Source: Calditrichia bacterium
GTDB lineage: Bacteria > Calditrichota > Calditrichia > JAJRVZ01
Direction of reading: 5' to 3'
NCBI GenBank assembly: GCA_963712885.1
Contig: CAVQJT010000010.1
Coordinates: forward strand, 68,249 to 132,248
DNA length: 64,000 nt
Below, one piece after another: positions 1,117 to 11,275 of this stretch (position 1 is the stretch's first letter; each line of letters opens with the position of its first letter). The position numbers and the translations under genes are program-made. Below the pieces are notes generated by a model. The model saw only the letters and a list, made by a program, of their open reading frames with translations. It had not been told where the DNA came from and did no database searches.

Positions 1117-3669
1117 ATGAAAAATTATGTTTGTGACCCGATCGCAATACTTTCTGTTCTGACAATTTTAGTAACGTCTGTTTCAGGTCAGGGGGTTCCG
1201 GACGATCCTGCCGGTGACATAAAAATGGAACGTGAAGCCTACATGAATGGTAACCGTGTTCTGCTCTATTTTCAGAATACCAGCGAAATGGCAAAATGGG
1301 CTGTGTCGACTATTGGTACAGGTTGGTCACGCTGGCCAAACACGATGGATGGTACACGCATGCTCGACGGTATGGCGTTTATGGTTGCAGCCAGGGTATA
1401 TCTGGAGAACGGCGACACCCCGGTGACCAGCCTCGAAGAGATCCGGAGCCGGAATGATCTGGATACTCTCTATTACCTCCAAACCAGCTATCGCGAGGAA
1501 ATGGACACGGACCCAACCGGGGCCATCGAGTGGGGATTTTATCCGGTTTATGGTTATTTCAACGAAAATAGTGAGTACCCGGCAATGAGTAATTTCCCTG
1601 TTTCCTGGCCACCTTCAGGATGGCCGGCACCGGGCAATACAACAAAATGGCCGGGTGAATGGAACGGCCGTTTTGGAAGAGGAGTGATCTACGCTGACCT
1701 GGAAACCTATTATGTTATTAACGATGCTCAGGATCAGGAATACCTGGGCCCGGATGACTCCGTAAAATATTACCCCAGACCAGGTGTTTATATCGGTGAC
1801 AAGAGACCAGACGTATCTATCCAATACGGTATGCCTTGGGGCGGGATCGGTCTGCGCGTTGAAGTACGTGGATTTCAATGGAATAATGAAGAAGCAAAAG
1901 ATATTATTTTTTGGGAATATACCTTATCCAACATTTCGGATTATGCCCTTCCGGAATTAGCCGTCGGTTTTTGGGTGGATAACGGAATTGGAGGTGAGAG
2001 TGACGACGAGAACGGATTCTATAATCTTGAGACCGAAATGACCTATTCATGGGATATCGATGGTATCGGCGCAGGTGGATTACCAACCGGTATCATGGGT
2101 TTTGCCATGCTCGAGTCACCGGCAATTTCCACAGACGGGATCGATAATGATAAAGACGGTCTGACCGATGAGCGAAAGGATAACAATGCTGGTATGCTCA
2201 TCGGACCCTACGATGGGATTAGCGATCTCAGTAAATTTCTTCAATTTTATAATATGAAAGAAGAAGACCTCAGGATGCATTTTGAAGGCGATGAAGACCA
2301 GGACTGGCTGGACGGTTTTGATAAAAATGGCAATGGATCTTATGCCTATTTTGACAGTACCGGCAATGGCTGGATGATTGAAAATGGTGAATTTGCCGGT
2401 GATGATGTAGGCCTCGATGGTGTGGGACCAGGTGATCTGAACTATAACGGTCCGGACCAGGGCGAGGGAAATCATAAGCCGGATTTAATTGCCGGCGTGG
2501 GTTGCGAGCCTAATTTCGGGTCAACCGATGCTAATGAAGGGGATATGATCGGAACAACAGCCTTCCGACTTTTTCCCGTACCTTCGCACCGCCCACCTTA
2601 TACATTCTGGTTCAAGAATGATAGATCGATGTGGGAATTGACCGGTGATAGTCAGATTGTCGAATATTCAGGTACTATCTCGAACTTGATAATGACTTTT
2701 GCCTCAGGTCCATTTACATTTTTCATGGGAACTACGGAAAGAATTTCTATAGCTGAGTTGCATGCCTATGACGAATTATCGGGATTGAACAGCGATGAAC
2801 ATCATGCCCCAAATCTTTATCAAACAAAAAAAAACGCGCAGAGAATTTATGAAAATGATTACCGCTTTAATATTCAATTTTCCAAAACGGTGGAAATTAC
2901 CGCCGGCCAAACAGATACGCTGGATGATATCGCCAATTCCGGTGCCTCGGTAAATGTGACGGCCGGGGATGATACGGTGACTGTTTCAATGATTTCCTAC
3001 CGTGATCATCCAATGTATACGGAGCCAATAGATCGGTCATTTATCACCGGGATTGGTAGATATATCGATGTTCTCGCTGATGGTGATATTTCATGGCCGG
3101 CAGAGATAAAAATATATTACACCGCTGAGGATCTTGCCCGTTCCGGTGTTCTAGAATCCGAACTACTGGGTATATATTATTGGGATAGTGACTATGAAGT
3201 ATGGAGATTATATTCGGGTTCAGGTGCGGATGATTTTGATCGCGGTACTTCAACAACCGGAATTGATACAAGGAATGCATATATCGAAAATCGTGAATAT
3301 GAGGGATTTGCCTGGACTAGCGCCTATCACTTGACGGCCATGCGCATCGGAACCGAAATTGATACGCTTGCCTCGGAAGTATGGGAAAGTATCCCGTTAA
3401 ATCCATGGAGTTATCGGTTGTATCAAAACTATCCTAACCCATTCAATCCAGCGACAGTGATCAGCTGGCAATTGGCAGTTGGCAGTCAGGTGGAACTGGC
3501 GGTATACAATCTGCTGGGGAAAAAAGTGGCAACTCTGGTATCCAAAAAAATGAATCCCGGGATCCATACCTATACATTCAACGGAAAAAATCTGGCGAGT
3601 GGCGTCTACTACTACCAGCTGGTGGCAGGAGCGTACCGGGAAGTGAAGAAGATGGTTTTACTAAAGTGA
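1117..3669 (+). CDS. Secreted 850-aa protein with a signal peptide, Asp/Gly-rich Ca-binding-like loops (DGIDNDKDGLTDERKDNN; DGFDKNGNGSY) and an intact T9SS C-terminal domain. Function unknown.
   Basis: Good RBS (AAGGAAA). N-terminal hydrophobic signal. C-terminus is LYQNYPNPFNPATVISWQLAVGSQVELAVYNLLGKKVATLVS...YYYQLVAGAYREVKKMVLLK. Confidence 0.8.
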   Translation: MKNYVCDPIAILSVLTILVTSVSGQGVPDDPAGDIKMEREAYMNGNRVLLYFQNTSEMAKWAVSTIGTGWSRWPNTMDGTRMLDGMAFMVAARVYLENGDTPVTSLEEIRSRNDLDTLYYLQTSYREEMDTDPTGAIEWGFYPVYGYFNENSEYPAMSNFPVSWPPSGWPAPGNTTKWPGEWNGRFGRGVIYADLETYYVINDAQDQEYLGPDDSVKYYPRPGVYIGDKRPDVSIQYGMPWGGIGLRVEVRGFQWNNEEAKDIIFWEYTLSNISDYALPELAVGFWVDNGIGGESDDENGFYNLETEMTYSWDIDGIGAGGLPTGIMGFAMLESPAISTDGIDNDKDGLTDERKDNNAGMLIGPYDGISDLSKFLQFYNMKEEDLRMHFEGDEDQDWLDGFDKNGNGSYAYFDSTGNGWMIENGEFAGDDVGLDGVGPGDLNYNGPDQGEGNHKPDLIAGVGCEPNFGSTDANEGDMIGTTAFRLFPVPSHRPPYTFWFKNDRSMWELTGDSQIVEYSGTISNLIMTFASGPFTFFMGTTERISIAELHAYDELSGLNSDEHHAPNLYQTKKNAQRIYENDYRFNIQFSKTVEITAGQTDTLDDIANSGASVNVTAGDDTVTVSMISYRDHPMYTEPIDRSFITGIGRYIDVLADGDISWPAEIKIYYTAEDLARSGVLESELLGIYYWDSDYEVWRLYSGSGADDFDRGTSTTGIDTRNAYIENREYEGFAWTSAYHLTAMRIGTEIDTLASEVWESIPLNPWSYRLYQNYPNPFNPATVISWQLAVGSQVELAVYNLLGKKVATLVSKKMNPGIHTYTFNGKNLASGVYYYQLVAGAYREVKKMVLLK

Positions 3670-5344: not shown

Positions 5345-6533
5345 ATGGTAAAGAAATTCATGCCATTTTTCATTTTTTGTAGTTCTATATTGGTCATCAT
5401 CGGAATCTTAAACGCGCAGGAAGGGAACACGGATTTCAATGATCTGGCAAAACGGCTTGTAAGTCAAAGTGCAAATGTCCAGGAAGGTGAGCACGTCCTG
5501 ATTTACGGAAGTGTGCGTGATATGGCACTAATGGAAGAGATTGCTCTTGAAGTGCGCAAAACAGGCGCCTTTCCGTTAATTCAGGTTGGTAGCGAACCAT
5601 TGAGTTGGCGGATGTTTAGTGAAACGCCTAAAAAATACGACAGCCAACCCCGGACATTGGGTCTTAAAATCAGCTGAAATATTTGATGTCCAGATCATGG
5701 TGAGCGTTGGTGATAACCTGAATCTGTTTGCCGAAGCCGATCCCGAACGGCTTGCGGCAAACGGCAAAGCATTTGAACCGGTGAATGCCCTTTATGTAAA
5801 ACGTAATGTCCGTGGTGTGTCTATCGGTAATGAGATGTACCCCACCAAAAATCTGGCCAAACGCTGGAATGTACCCTTTGAAAAACTGAAAAAAATGTTC
5901 TGGCAGGGAGTTACTGCCGATTATAAACAGGTCGAAGCAACAGGTATGCAATTCAGGAAAAAATTATCCACCGGCAAAGAACTTCATCTTATACACTCGA
6001 ATGGAACAGACCTTAAAATTAATATCGAAAATCGCCCGGTAATCGTAAGCGATGGAATTATTTCTCAAGATGATATGAAAGCCGGATATGCAGCGGTCCA
6101 GGTCTACCTGCCGGCCGGTGAGGTGATTGTTGCCCCGGTGCCTGGTACCGCCCAGGGAAAAGTCGTCATAGACCGGATGTTCTATTCAGGAAAGGAAGTC
6201 AACGGACTTACGCTGACCTTTGAAAATGGCAAACTGGTATCGATGACATCCGAATCGGATATTAGCCGTATCAAAGCAGATTATGATGCCGCCGGTGCAG
6301 GCAAAGAATCTTTCGGAGAAATTGATATAGGGATAAATCCGGATATCCAAATACTTCCCGACAGCAAAATGACATCCTGGGTACCGTCCGGGATGGTAAC
6401 CGTCGGAATTGGCAATAACACATGGGCCGGCGGTGATAACAATACCAGTTACGCATTGTTTGGACATATTGCCGGTTCGACGGTAAAAGTTGACGGAAAG
6501 ACTCTGGTCGAAGACGGTAAATTAAATCTCTGA
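5345..6533 (+). CDS. Secreted M29-family aminopeptidase (AmpS/aminopeptidase T-like), split by a frameshift near 5620-5680.
   Basis: Two overlapping ORFs, 5345..5677 and 5619..6533. The N-terminal part (LAKRLVSQSANVQEGEHVLIYG) and the long C-terminal part resemble M29 peptidases. Strong RBS AAGGAGG. Confidence 0.55.
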
Positions 6534-6948: not shown

Positions 6949-9417
6949 ATGTCTATTCCCGTAAAAAAAATAGAAAAAAAATGGAAAAAGTACTGGGAGG
7001 AGCATAAAACCTACCAGATTGACCTCGAAGATGCCCAGAATAAATGCTATTGTCTGGTCATGTTTCCGTACCCCTCGGCTGATAAACTCCATCTGGGTCA
7101 CTGGTTCAATTATGCACCGGCCGATACATGGGCCCGTTTTAAAAGGATGCGGGGGCTAAAAGTATTTCACCCAATGGGTTTTGATGCCTTTGGTCTTCCG
7201 GCGGAAAATTACGCGGTGAAGACCGGTGTGCATCCAAGCGAAACCACCAAAACAAATGTCGATTTCATCCGCAATCAACTTAAGGAAATCGGCGCCATCT
7301 ACGATTGGAACTATGAGGTCAATACCAGCCATCCCGATTATTATAAATGGACTCAATGGCTTTTCCTTCAGTTTTTCAAACACGACCTGGCATACAAACG
7401 GGAAGCGCCGGTGAACTGGGATCCGGTTGACCAGACCGTTCTGGCTAACGAACAGGTTCTGCCGGACGGCACCGCGGAGCGCTCCGGCGCAAAAGTAGAA
7501 AAAAAGATGATGTCACAGTGGTTCCTGAGCATCACAAACTATGCCGATCGTCTCCTCGAAGGGCTCGACCGGATCGACTGGCCTGAAAAGACAAAACTGA
7601 TGCAGAAAAACTGGATCGGTAAAAGCCACGGTGCCGAAGTGGACTTTATCATCGATACCCCTGAAAAGGAAACCGTAACCGTCTTTACCACCAGACCGGA
7701 CACCCTTTTTGGGGCAACTTATCTCGTACTGGCTCCGGAACACGTGTTGGTTGAAAAAATCACCACACCGCCCCGGAAAGCAGCGGTGGACAAATATATC
7801 AGAGAGAGTATGTCGGTCAGCGAAATTGAGCGGACATCCACGATTCGTGACAAAACCGGGGTATTTACCGGTGCATATGCAATCAATCCGGTAAATCAGG
7901 AGAAGATTCCGGTATGGATCGCCGACTATGTGCTGGTGACTTATGGCACCGGTGCGATTATGGCCGTTCCGGCCCATGATGAACGTGATTTTGAATTTGC
8001 CACCAAGTTCGAGTTGCCGATTAGAAAAGTGATTCTCGCTGAAGGATCTGATCCGGACGCCACCCTTAAAACTGCTTACTGTGATACAGGGATCATGATA
8101 AATTCGGGCACATACAATGGACTGAATTCAGACAAAGGAATTGAGAAAATCACCGATGATCTGGAAAAACGCGGTATCGGGAAGCGTTCCATAAAGTATA
8201 AATTCCGCGACTGGCTCATCTCGCGTCAAAGATACTGGGGTGTACCGATACCGATCATTTACTGCGAAACATGTGGAACCGTACCGGTGCCGGAAGAGGA
8301 TTTACCGGTGCTGCTGCCTGATGTGGTCGATTTCAAGCCCAAAGGGGTTCCGCCGCTGGCCACTGCCCGGGAGTTCGTCCATACCTCCTGTCCCCGCTGC
8401 AAGGGGCCGGGAAAGCGGGAAGTAGAGACCATGGATACATTCGTCGATTCTTCGTGGTATTTTCTGCGTTACACGAGCAATCGTGAGGCCGATCGTCCCT
8501 GGAATCCCACCTTGGTGAAAAAGTGGCTGCCGGTGGATCAGTATATCGGTGGGGTGGACCATGCCACCATGCATCTGCTGTATGCCCGGTTCTTTGTCAT
8601 GGCTTTATATGATATGGGGCATCTGCCGTTTGAGGAACCATTTAAAAACCTTGTACATCAGGGTATTATCAAGGGACCCGACGGCATGCGTATGTCCAAA
8701 TCCCGAGGAAATGTGGTCAATCCCGAGGAATATCTCAGCAAGTTTGGCAGTGATGTTTTCCGCTGCTACCTGATGTTTGGCTTTGATTTTAACGCCGGTG
8801 GCCCGTGGGATGATTCCGGTATTGCCGCACTGGATAAATTTATCCACCGTACCTGGCGCATTATAATGGATACTCTGGATCAGATCGAAAAACCGCAAAA
8901 TGAAAAAATATTCGATGAACCCGAGCAGAATCTGAATACCGTGATGCACAATTCCATAAAAGGGGCAACAATCGATATCGATCGCTTTCATTTCAATACC
9001 GCCATCAGCAGGATCATGGAACTGGTCAACGAATTATACCGGTATAACAACGATGTAGCTAAGGCCAGAAAGAACACCGTTTTATATCGCACAGCTATAA
9101 AAAACACCATATTGCTTCTTGCGCCTTTCGCACCGCATCTGGCAGAGGAAATGTGGGAGAAGATCGGGGGGAAACCGTCAATCTTTGACCAGTCCTGGCC
9201 CGAATATGATCAACATGCGCTGAGAAAAGATGTTCTGACCTGGGTCATCCAGATAAATGGCAAAATCCGGGAGAAAGCAGAAGGGAAGGCGGAAATGAGC
9301 AGGGAAGAGGCCGAACAATTTGCCCTGCAAACCGGCCGGATCCCGGAATTATTAAGCGGAAAAGAAATCAGGAAGATCATCATCGTTCCGAAGAAACTGA
9401 TCAATATTGTGATTTGA
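6949..9417 (+). CDS. leuS: Leucine--tRNA ligase.
   Basis: 822 aa. Class I HIGH-type motif ([11 protein letters not shown]), KMSKS motif (RMSKSRGN) and the editing-domain region. Confidence 0.95.
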
Positions 9418-10898
9418 TTGCGCTAATTCAAAATGTGCCTACCTCAGACTGGGCCACAGTTTTTGTGGCCTGCTGTTTTTTATTGCTGATCTTAATCTCG
9501 ATCGAACTGATCAATAAATGGTTTCAATGGAAAAGGGTCTACCTGCGTAAATTTGTCCATATTTTTGTCGGACTGCTGATCTGCATAACCTCGCTCCTGA
9601 TCGAAAATAAAATTCCAATCCTTCTGATCGCCGGGATATTTACCCTCTTTGACTGGTGGGCGGTCAGGAACCGGCACCTGAAAAGCATTCATCTCAACGG
9701 GCAATCCTATGGAACGGTTTATTATCCCATTTCCATATTTTTACTTGCCCTATTGCTCTGGGATGCACACAAGGCGATCTTTCTGGTGTCCATCCTGATC
9801 ATGATCGTACCGGACGCGCTCGCAGGATTAGCAGGGATGCGCTTTGCCAACAATCATTATGTTATCCTGACTGAAAAAAAATCGATTCCGGGCGCCCTTG
9901 CCATGTTCTTTTCCAGCACGATCATATTCTTTTTTGCCTATAACAGTTATTTTAATAAAGATATATGGTTCAGCATGTCCGCTGCTGTCCTTACCGGTAT
10001 CGCCATTTCAGCAGCCGAATTGTTATCCCATAAAGGCTCGGACAATTTATCGGTACCACTGTTGACTGCCATGGTGATGTATGCCTTTTTGCAGGACGAA
10101 GTCATGTATGCGCAGCTGTCTCTTGGCATCCTGATGGCCATGGTTGTCAGTATGCTCAGTTATCGGGTTAAATTTCTGGATCTCAGCGGGGCATTCGGGG
10201 CTTTTCTCCTGGGTCTGGTAATTTTTGGATTTGGTGGATGGTTGTTCACCATTCCGATTTTATTTTTTTATCTCTCTTCCAGTCTGTTGTCGAACCTGGG
10301 TAAACGGCAGAAGCAACGTTTTGAGGCCTCCTTCGAGAAAACCGGGACACGCGACGTATACCAGGTACTTGCAAACGGAGTTATTCCCGGCATACTTGTT
10401 CTGATTTATTATTTTTACCCGTTGCCATTGTACTTTTATATGTTTCTCGCCGCACTTGCGACCGCTACAGCCGATACCTGGGCAACTGAAATCGGCGTAT
10501 TCTCGGGATCTAATCCGAGGCTCATCACAACAATGGAAAGGGTAGAGCCGGGCAGATCGGGGGCCATATCTGTTAAGGGGCTGGTAGCTGCATTTGCAGG
10601 CAGTTTGGCTATTTCTTATACCGGTATATTAATGTTTTCTGGACCGATACAGACCTTTGTTGTCGTTGCATGGATAACAATAGCAGGATTTTTAGGTAAT
10701 ATATTCGACAGCATCGTTGGCGCCTCAATTCAGGCACAGTTCCGGTGCCGGATTTGTCTGAAGCACACAGAACGAAAAATACACTGTGGTAAAATAACCG
10801 ATCATATTTCAGGAAAATCATTTTTGAACAACGACTTTGTGAATTTTTTTTCGATATTATTTGGCGTTATAATACTGATCATTTTATACGGTTATTAA
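9414..10898 (+). CDS. Polytopic membrane protein fusing a CTP-dependent polyprenol/phytol/dolichol kinase-like domain (N-terminal half) with a DUF92/TIGR00297-type domain (C-terminal half).
   Basis: Many TM helices. N-terminal half has [11 protein letters not shown]-type motifs, like the VTE5/DolK kinase family. C-terminal half (GAFGAFLLG...[15 protein letters not shown]...RSGAISVKG) matches the DUF92 family to which VTE6 belongs. Overlaps leuS by 4 bp. Start codon (TTG/GTG) uncertain. Confidence 0.6.
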
Positions 10899-10996: not shown

Positions 10997-11275
10997 ATGT
11001 GGTATGCATTAACAGAAAATCCGGTTCGGAGAACCAGAAAAGAAATGCGCAAGGAATTCATGGCTGCGCGATATGAGATCATTTTTTATGCGGAGACACG
11101 TGAATTACTGGAAGAAAAATTGAACAGGAACATAAATGAATTCCCGGAGAAGATGTCCAGATATCTTGAGGCGGGCATAAAGTTTGTTGAAGCGGAGAAT
11201 ACGGCCCAGGCCAAAAGGAGAGCACCGGCAGTTCATATCTATTTTGACCAGCGCGGCCAGTACAAATTTCTATAA
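10997..11275 (+). CDS. Hypothetical 92-aa protein.
   Basis: ORF only; weak RBS. Confidence 0.3.
   Translation: MWYALTENPVRRTRKEMRKEFMAARYEIIFYAETRELLEEKLNRNINEFPEKMSRYLEAGIKFVEAENTAQAKRRAPAVHIYFDQRGQYKFL

Follow-up and report, generated by a model that had tools for sequence, protein, structure and literature searches.

In plants and cyanobacteria, two separate kinases driven by cytidine triphosphate (CTP) act one after the other on phytol, VTE5 (AT5G04490) producing phytyl phosphate and VTE6 (AT1G78620) phytyl diphosphate (PMC5745509). The prediction of the second of them came from comparing it with COG1836 genes of prokaryotes (PMC9782597), and several archaeal proteins of this group (COG1836/pfam01940), such as Mbar_A3310, carry an N-terminal Sec59-like domain and have been predicted to catalyze a phosphorylation in isoprenoid metabolism (Makarova, Galperin & Koonin 2015; PMC5898192). 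Here, we describe a bacterial protein with the same order of domains, encoded in a stretch of 64,000 nucleotides (referred to as the window, in whose positions all coordinates are given) of a Calditrichia bacterium genome (GenBank assembly GCA_963712885.1, contig CAVQJT010000010.1). The gene, at 9414..10898 on the forward strand, codes for a two-domain polytopic membrane protein of 494 amino acids (plus stop), whose N- and C-terminal halves are homologues of VTE5 and VTE6, respectively. We consider that the best explanation for this fusion, and a reasonably probable one, is a two-step salvage of isoprenoid alcohols, from prenol to prenyl phosphate to prenyl diphosphate.

The archaeal family arCOG02245, to which Mbar_A3310 of Methanosarcina barkeri belongs, shows a polyprenol-kinase-like N terminus followed by a DUF92 C terminus, as the window protein does. 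In both cases the halves are distant members of the PF01148 superfamily with pairs of aspartates, and the predicted role is that of an isoprenoid kinase. However, the archaeal gene is linked to uppS, whereas the gene of the window is bacterial (from the Fibrobacterota-Chlorobiota-Bacteroidota [FCB] group), lies next to leuS and other housekeeping genes, and codes for a protein with a CxxC...HC cluster. This likeness rests on the published description of Mbar_A3310. Compared to plants, in which two plastid proteins work on chlorophyll-derived phytol, the window protein is a single fused chain with approximately 23% identity to VTE5. The structural prototype of PF01148, CdsA (TmCdsA, 4Q2E/4Q2G), has a D-x-x-A...K-x-x-G region that aligns with the N-terminal half, but it is a cytidylyltransferase and not a kinase, and its C-terminal signature is replaced in the window protein by E...GSDNLSVP. 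Finally, the closest unfused relatives of the N-terminal half are stand-alone bacterial proteins of about 215 to 240 amino acids (about 25 to 38% identity over the aligned part) called dolichol kinase, phytol kinase or SEC59-DGK1-VTE5; they have no DUF92 half and owe these names to automated COG/KO assignment rather than to experiments. No paper on the bacterial fusion was found in the literature searched.

A first reading of the window, made from its letters and translated open reading frames (ORFs) alone (the sequence-only reading), had assigned the C-terminal half to DUF92 and recognized this as the family of VTE6, and both statements hold. Residues 241-484 (10134..10865, forward strand) match the Pfam model of DUF92 (PF01940, COG1836) over profile positions 2-250 of 251, with an E value of 1.3e-68 and 231.6 bits (cutoff 27.5), and the same domain was matched by all 47 homologues that we aligned. 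The link with the plant enzyme is a chain of identities taken from three papers: VTE6, which converts phytyl phosphate and CTP into phytyl diphosphate, is AT1G78620 (PMC5745509); AT1G78620 belongs to COG1836, annotated with "phytol-phosphate metabolism" (PMC3223725); and COG1836 corresponds to pfam01940 (PMC5898192). Therefore, this half falls in the VTE6 family. Two aspartates are invariant across the 47 homologues, D354 in the motif A353-D354-T-W-A-T-E359-I-G361 (10470..10496, forward strand), which is the putative first catalytic aspartate, and D432 in the motif D432-S-x-x-G436-A437-x-x-Q440 (10707..10733, forward strand). They are proposed to form a metal-binding pair, and a conserved aspartate pair has been described for DUF92/arCOG02245 (PMC5898192). 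In the first motif, T355, W356, T358, E359, and G361 are invariant as well. The possibility that this half is a second VTE5-like domain was ruled out, since its comparison with VTE5 gave a probability of only 0.4%.

The N-terminal half (residues 1-236; 9414..10121, forward strand) has the features of a VTE5/SEC59/DGK1-type, CTP-dependent polyprenol-kinase-like domain, divergent within the PF01148 superfamily. Scans with Pfam and NCBIfam gave nothing for these residues, even when they were scanned alone at E≤10, and ten of the stand-alone relatives had no match in either collection. There is, hence, a gap in the coverage of these models for both the kinase half and the stand-alone VTE5-like proteins; the models are too narrow, so the empty scans are not evidence of absence. 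In the alignment of the 47 full-length homologues (34 to 79% identity to the window protein), this half is as strongly conserved as the DUF92 half, with 11 invariant residues (R45, H49, G53, G100, T101, D134, A137, G160, E202, G208, and D210) and others that are nearly so (K46, G141, K156, S157, N211, L212, and P215). Matches to PF01148 (CTP_transf_1) at E≤1 were obtained for 6 of the 47, and three of these orthologues (35 to 42% identical to the window protein) exceeded the gathering cutoff of 24, with 26.5 to 30.1 bits. These matches map to residues 14-208, which rules out the DUF92 half as their source. A profile built from the N-terminal half retrieved stand-alone proteins of 212 to 247 amino acids (E values from 1e-46 to 1e-21), named in their sources as dolichol kinase, phytol kinase, SEC59/DGK1/VTE5 family protein, or phosphatidate cytidylyltransferase.

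The comparison with VTE5 itself was made with 16 source-named plant orthologues, all of them database sequences. They were collected with a VTE5 fragment that served only as bait; its identity was 100% with a phytol kinase entry of the database and approximately 90% with Brassicaceae entries named "Phytol kinase 1." BLASTP aligned residues 45-223 of the window protein with the Cardamine phytol kinase 1 (P0290) at an E value of 2e-8, and the profile-profile alignment with the 16 orthologues (hhalign) covered the entire domain, with 219 columns, a probability of 99.67%, and an E value of 1.6e-25. R45, K46, H49, G53, D134, A137, G141, K156, S157, G160, E202, D210, N211, and P215, all invariant or nearly so in the family, pair with positions that are invariant in plant VTE5, and the motifs RK.VH...G, D..A...G, KS..GS..MF, and DN.SVP match residue for residue in both alignments. 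The first motif, R45-K46-x-V-H49-x-x-x-G53 (RKFVHIFVG; 9546..9572, forward strand), is family-invariant and aligns with SRKLVHILSG of VTE5. The second, D134-x-x-A137-x-x-x-G141...K156-S157-x-x-G160 (9813..9893, forward strand), is the putative nucleotide/metal-binding core; its counterpart in VTE5 is GGDGIADIMGR...KSWAGS, and it has a weak match to ADTWATEIG...GIS..G in the DUF92 half. The third, E202-x5-G208-S-D210-N211-L212-S-V-P215 (10017..10058, forward strand), contains the second conserved acidic site and corresponds to VESLP...DDNISVP of VTE5 in the profile alignment. By BLASTP, the residues identical in VTE5 are R45, K46, H49, G53, D134, K156, S157, G160, D210, N211, and P215, while E202 is paired with a VTE5 glutamate in the profile alignment but lies one column off in BLASTP.

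As a control, the N-terminal profile was compared with Escherichia coli CdsA, resulting in a probability of 1.9% and an E value of 0.025 over the motif region only. These alignments place the N-terminal half, as a predicted kinase, in the VTE5-type branch within the CTP_transf_1 superfamily, apart from the cytidylyltransferase branch of CdsA. The sequence-only reading had allowed that this half might lack any similarity to polyprenol kinases and consist of mere extra transmembrane helices, which is ruled out by the homology to VTE5 and by the invariant residues. Its proposal of a relationship with VTE5 and dolichol kinases stands, but the "DgkA-like" part of it must be dropped, given that the DgkA family (PF01219) had no match in the whole protein or in the N-terminal half alone at E≤10. 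The relevant "DGK" relative is the CTP-dependent Dgk1 of yeast, which belongs to a different family from bacterial DgkA.

A weak similarity is also detectable between the two halves of the protein (hhalign P value of 1.8e-4 and probability of 49%), which align in register, D134-x-x-A...G...KS..G with D354-TWATEIG...GIS..G. Published HHpred evidence points the same way, with DUF92 as a distant PF01148 relative that keeps the metal-binding aspartate pair (PMC5898192). The protein is, therefore, a tandem of two modules of the CdsA superfamily that diverged anciently, each with its own intact acidic pair. The AlphaFold2 model of the whole protein (mean predicted local distance difference test [pLDDT] of 92.2 and predicted template modeling score of 0.90) has high confidence at the domain junction and depicts one compact two-domain protein, and the N-terminal half modeled alone reached a pLDDT of 94.9. 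Searches of the Protein Data Bank with Foldseek gave nothing significant for either the full model or that of the N-terminal half. The first three ranks for the N-terminal half were TmCdsA structures (4q2e/4q2g; probability of 0.85 to 0.97, E value of ~0.1, template modeling [TM] score of 0.35), and TmCdsA was the sole specific fold that recurred for both the N-terminal half and the whole protein. When a hidden Markov model of the N-terminal half was run against all Protein Data Bank sequences, CdsA was not recovered, and the only match was a chance one to light-harvesting complex I (E value of 0.09).

The reading frame of the gene is uninterrupted from 9414 to 10898. Directly upstream is leuS, encoding a leucyl-tRNA synthetase of 822 amino acids (6949..9417, forward strand), and the TTG start of the fusion gene lies inside its final codons (ATT GTG ATT TGA), so that both genes overlap by 4 bp (9414-9417; ATT-TGA/TTG-ATT). 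Both the ORF and the overlap are exactly as the sequence-only reading had them, and the independent Logan assembly ERR15459714 has an identical LeuS followed, with the same 4-bp overlap, by a PF01940 gene of 494 amino acids. The overlap makes co-transcription and translational coupling of the two genes probable. Codon 8, a GTG at 9435 (forward strand), is the next codon in frame that resembles a start. An orthologue that is 79% identical (P0001) has been called from the equivalent position, while in another (P0003) the TTG of the window is matched by an ATG. The true start could be either TTG 9414 or GTG 9435, and this uncertainty of 7 codons is immaterial to the domains, in which conservation begins only at D12 and W13.

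A public NCBI/ENA record with the identical sequence (P0002) calls only 353 amino acids, from M142 (9837-10898, forward strand). It is best regarded as a gene-calling error, since a start at M142 cuts the N-terminal domain just past the D134 motif and takes away the greater part of the kinase-like domain. No contig encoding this shorter protein was found on record. Public records give the family members no other name than "DUF92 domain-containing protein" or "TIGR00297 family."

The fusion is found in many other genomes. One genome per species was scanned, yielding more than 596 DUF92 relatives; the best 80 loci were fetched, and the gene was callable in 78 of them. Both domains are in one ORF of about 490 to 540 amino acids in 71 of these 78 loci, from Calditrichota, KSB1, Neomarinimicrobiota/Fidelibacterota, Ignavibacteriota, Bacteroidota, Chlorobium/Chlorobaculum, Heliophilum, Chloroflexia, Clostridia, and Tepidanaerobacteraceae; in the scan, the match to an Archangium locus (L067) also extended over residues 40-487. 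The DUF92 domain stands alone in five loci (Melioribacter-like and Latescibacterota). In a metagenome-assembled genome of Anaerolineales (L049; CAYZGO010000006.1, 6001-7569), the two domains are coded by separate adjacent genes of 220 and 273 amino acids. The kinase-like gene stops right past its DNLTVP motif, and the two genes are in the same frame, with a stop codon and an 84-nucleotide spacer, unrelated to the fused linker, between them. This split pair is a Rosetta-stone pattern. When the N-terminal profile was run exhaustively with HMMER against 1.84 billion representative proteins, 8,928 clusters were matched at E≤1e-3, of which 960 remained at E≤1e-30, and approximately two-thirds of the best 150 relatives have at least 430 amino acids and were, because of this length, taken as fused. 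The architecture is, hence, widespread and very common in bacteria. The sequence-only reading had called for a search for the same fusion elsewhere, with the outcome just given, and had argued that a fusion implied a salvage route "in this bacterium"; the fusion turned out to be real, but there is nothing special to this bacterium in an architecture so common. The stand-alone relatives (P0122-P0148, e.g., the 236-amino-acid protein of Chloroflexus, P0123) form a sizeable family of their own.

In the mechanism that we propose, in agreement with the sequence-only reading, a single polytopic enzyme of the inner membrane would combine two modules that are distant relatives within the CdsA/CTP_transf_1 superfamily. 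One of them, N-terminal (residues 1-236) and of the VTE5/SEC59 type, would make the monophosphate from a free isoprenoid alcohol with CTP or another nucleoside triphosphate as donor, and the DUF92 module (residues 241-484), of the VTE6 family, would convert the monophosphate into the diphosphate. The product may then re-enter prenyltransferase reactions (in the synthesis of quinones, carotenoids, and pigments) or chain elongation. The fusion would hold the two activities at a 1:1 stoichiometry and would allow the membrane-embedded intermediate to be passed directly from one site to the other. What the analysis shows are the identities of the domains, the conservation of the putative catalytic residues in both halves, and the pattern of fusion and fission; both kinase activities, their order, the nucleotide donor, the channeling, and the substrate are inferred. 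The most plausible substrates are C15 to C20 prenols (farnesol, geranylgeraniol, phytol), because a diphosphate serves only prenyl transfer or elongation, while the cycle of carrier lipids needs the monophosphate. In the phototrophic hosts (Chlorobiaceae, Heliophilum, and Chloroflexia), the enzyme could be used on pigment-tail alcohols.

Several observations weigh against two-step prenol salvage. No isoprenoid, quinone, or pigment gene was linked to the fusion, either in the 78 loci or among the 25 commonest of the 65 Pfam families matched in the window, and the assignment to a pathway rests, therefore, on homology and on what the fusion itself implies. Phytol is an unlikely substrate for the majority of the hosts, which are non-phototrophs. 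The DUF92 half scores under the equivalog cutoff of TIGR00297 (142.6 versus 205.85 bits), with a match that spans only residues 239-441 and stops before the loop that carries the cysteine cluster, and the structural support for a CdsA-like fold is weak (the Foldseek values given above). In addition, no assayed fused member was found in the literature searched, papers from 2024 to 2026 name only VTE5, FOLK, VTE6, and the PolK of Plasmodium as characterized enzymes of the pathway, and plant VTE6 is the sole experimental anchor for DUF92.

In another function, which we regard as rather unlikely, both domains would be active on long-chain carrier lipids instead of C15 to C20 prenols. The N-terminal half would be an undecaprenol or dolichol-type (Sec59-like) kinase that keeps the pool of polyprenyl phosphate for envelope glycans, and the DUF92 half might carry out a related phosphotransfer on the same lipid. 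The nearest stand-alone relatives are named "dolichol kinase" as often as "phytol kinase," the sole conserved context of archaeal DUF92 is the cis-prenyltransferase UppS (PMC5898192), the housekeeping and cell-division surroundings (leuS, ftsB/DivIC, eno) fit with a constitutive envelope function, and the hosts are for the most part non-phototrophs. However, the carrier-lipid cycle uses the monophosphate, leaving a second kinase step without obvious use, and the only DUF92 protein that has been assayed works on a C20 phosphate. Our comparison of the N-terminal half, made with VTE5, is silent on chain-length preference either way.

A pair of glycerolipid enzymes is much less likely still. The N-terminal half would be in this case a DGK1-like, CTP-dependent diacylglycerol kinase that makes phosphatidate, and the C-terminal half a CdsA-like cytidylyltransferase or a pyrophosphate-forming enzyme working on this phosphatidate. 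Yeast Dgk1 does belong to the same SEC59/DGK1/VTE5 family after which the stand-alone relatives are named, DUF92 is distantly related to cytidylyltransferases and keeps the metal-binding aspartate dyad, and TmCdsA is the only specific solved fold that was recovered. Nevertheless, the N-terminal profile aligns with VTE5 over its whole length but hardly with CdsA (1.6e-25 as E value for the former, a probability of merely 1.9% for the latter), the single characterized member of DUF92 is a prenyl-phosphate kinase, and bacteria normally already have DgkA and CdsA. As for the fusion being unreal (a missed stop, a frameshift, a wrong start, or generic transmembrane helices on a DUF92 protein), the shorter call of the identical record, the TTG start overlapping leuS, and the presence in the window of one or more apparent frameshifts close by (one affects the gene of the M29 peptidase) could be invoked in its favor, but this explanation, which the sequence-only reading had itself raised, is refuted by the unbroken ORF, found with 494 amino acids also in the Logan assembly, by the 71 of 78 loci with both domains in one ORF, and by an N-terminal half that is conserved like the C-terminal one, with its 11 invariant residues and significant homology to VTE5.

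Another feature of the DUF92 half is the cluster C445-x-x-C448-x8-H457-C458 (10746..10787, forward strand), located in the loop of a beta-hairpin. It is nearly invariant in the alignment of the 47 homologues and is present in 59 of the 78 related loci, DUF92-only proteins included, but the versions of Chlorobiaceae, Heliophilum, Chloroflexia, and Clostridia have a cysteine-free loop instead. Some family members show weak Pfam matches to zinc ribbons. The cluster is a probable structural zinc knuckle that varies with the lineage; no mention of it was found in the literature searched.

No neighbor of the fusion gene is conserved family-wide, and the commonest ones appear in just 6 to 13 of the 78 loci. 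The most frequent (13 loci) is an unnamed family without Pfam match, and others are enolase, FtsB/DivIC, DUF502, HolA, cyclophilin, and an M16 peptidase; LeuS is directly upstream in 6 of the 78, the window included. Being housekeeping genes (leuS, eno, ftsB, holA, DUF502), these neighbors give no clue to the substrate. Directly downstream in the window, at 10997-11275 (forward strand), is an ORF of 92 amino acids, rich in charged residues and also called in the Logan assembly, for which no Pfam match was found. In a Pfam survey of the window (ORFs of at least 100 amino acids), the 25 commonest of the 65 matched families include proteins sorted by the type IX secretion system (T9SS), alginate lyases, chondroitinase B, acyl-CoA carboxylase, and enoyl-CoA hydratase. 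Taken together, this context suggests that the fusion is a housekeeping gene of a polysaccharide degrader of the FCB group.

Across the whole window, for instance at 1117-3669 (forward strand) and in ORFs between 41000 and 58000 (reverse strand), there are genes for proteins with T9SS C-terminal sorting domains, two alginate lyases, two chondroitinase-B-like proteins, ThuA, a 2-keto-3-deoxy-6-phosphogluconate (KDPG) aldolase, and a PfkB kinase. They point to a region for polysaccharide utilization in a bacterium of the FCB group, which appears to have no relation to the fusion gene. Upstream of leuS, the gene of an M29 aminopeptidase (5345-6533, forward strand) is broken up, with one ORF at 5345-5677 (110 amino acids) and a second, overlapping one at 5619-6533 (304 amino acids). 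Its span of 1,189 nucleotides is not a multiple of 3, and the Logan assembly (ERR15459714) has one intact ORF of 395 amino acids, which suggests a 1-nucleotide insertion or deletion in the window, either an assembly error or a real frameshift, probably placed in the A6 run near 5628-5633.

The bacterial clustering or fusion of COG1836 genes with phytol kinase genes was reportedly used for the prediction of VTE6. The window protein is an under-annotated addition to an architecture and a role already published for archaea, and it brings no conceptual surprise. What the recognition of its N-terminal half provides is a testable function for a large and widespread family (the 960 representative clusters mentioned above), and a naturally fused enzyme would be a convenient object for the biochemistry and structure of both steps. 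In engineered isoprenoid pathways, it could also be the single gene through which farnesol or geranylgeraniol is fed in. According to papers published between 2022 and 2026 (PMC9782597 among them), the kinases for prenols and prenyl phosphates have yet to be identified in organisms other than plants and Plasmodium. We tentatively suggest, as a possibility with somewhat less than even chances, that in non-phototrophic bacteria (Calditrichota, KSB1, Marinimicrobia, Ignavibacteriota, Bacteroidota, and some Clostridia and Myxococcota) the protein would be a constitutive, self-contained module that returns farnesol, geranylgeraniol, and longer prenols to their diphosphates, the monophosphate being passed directly between two sites of CdsA fold. 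If so, it would be the first gene-level identification of bacterial prenol salvage outside cyanobacteria, and it would offer a ready bifunctional enzyme for the polyprenyl-phosphate kinase step that is "missing" in animals.

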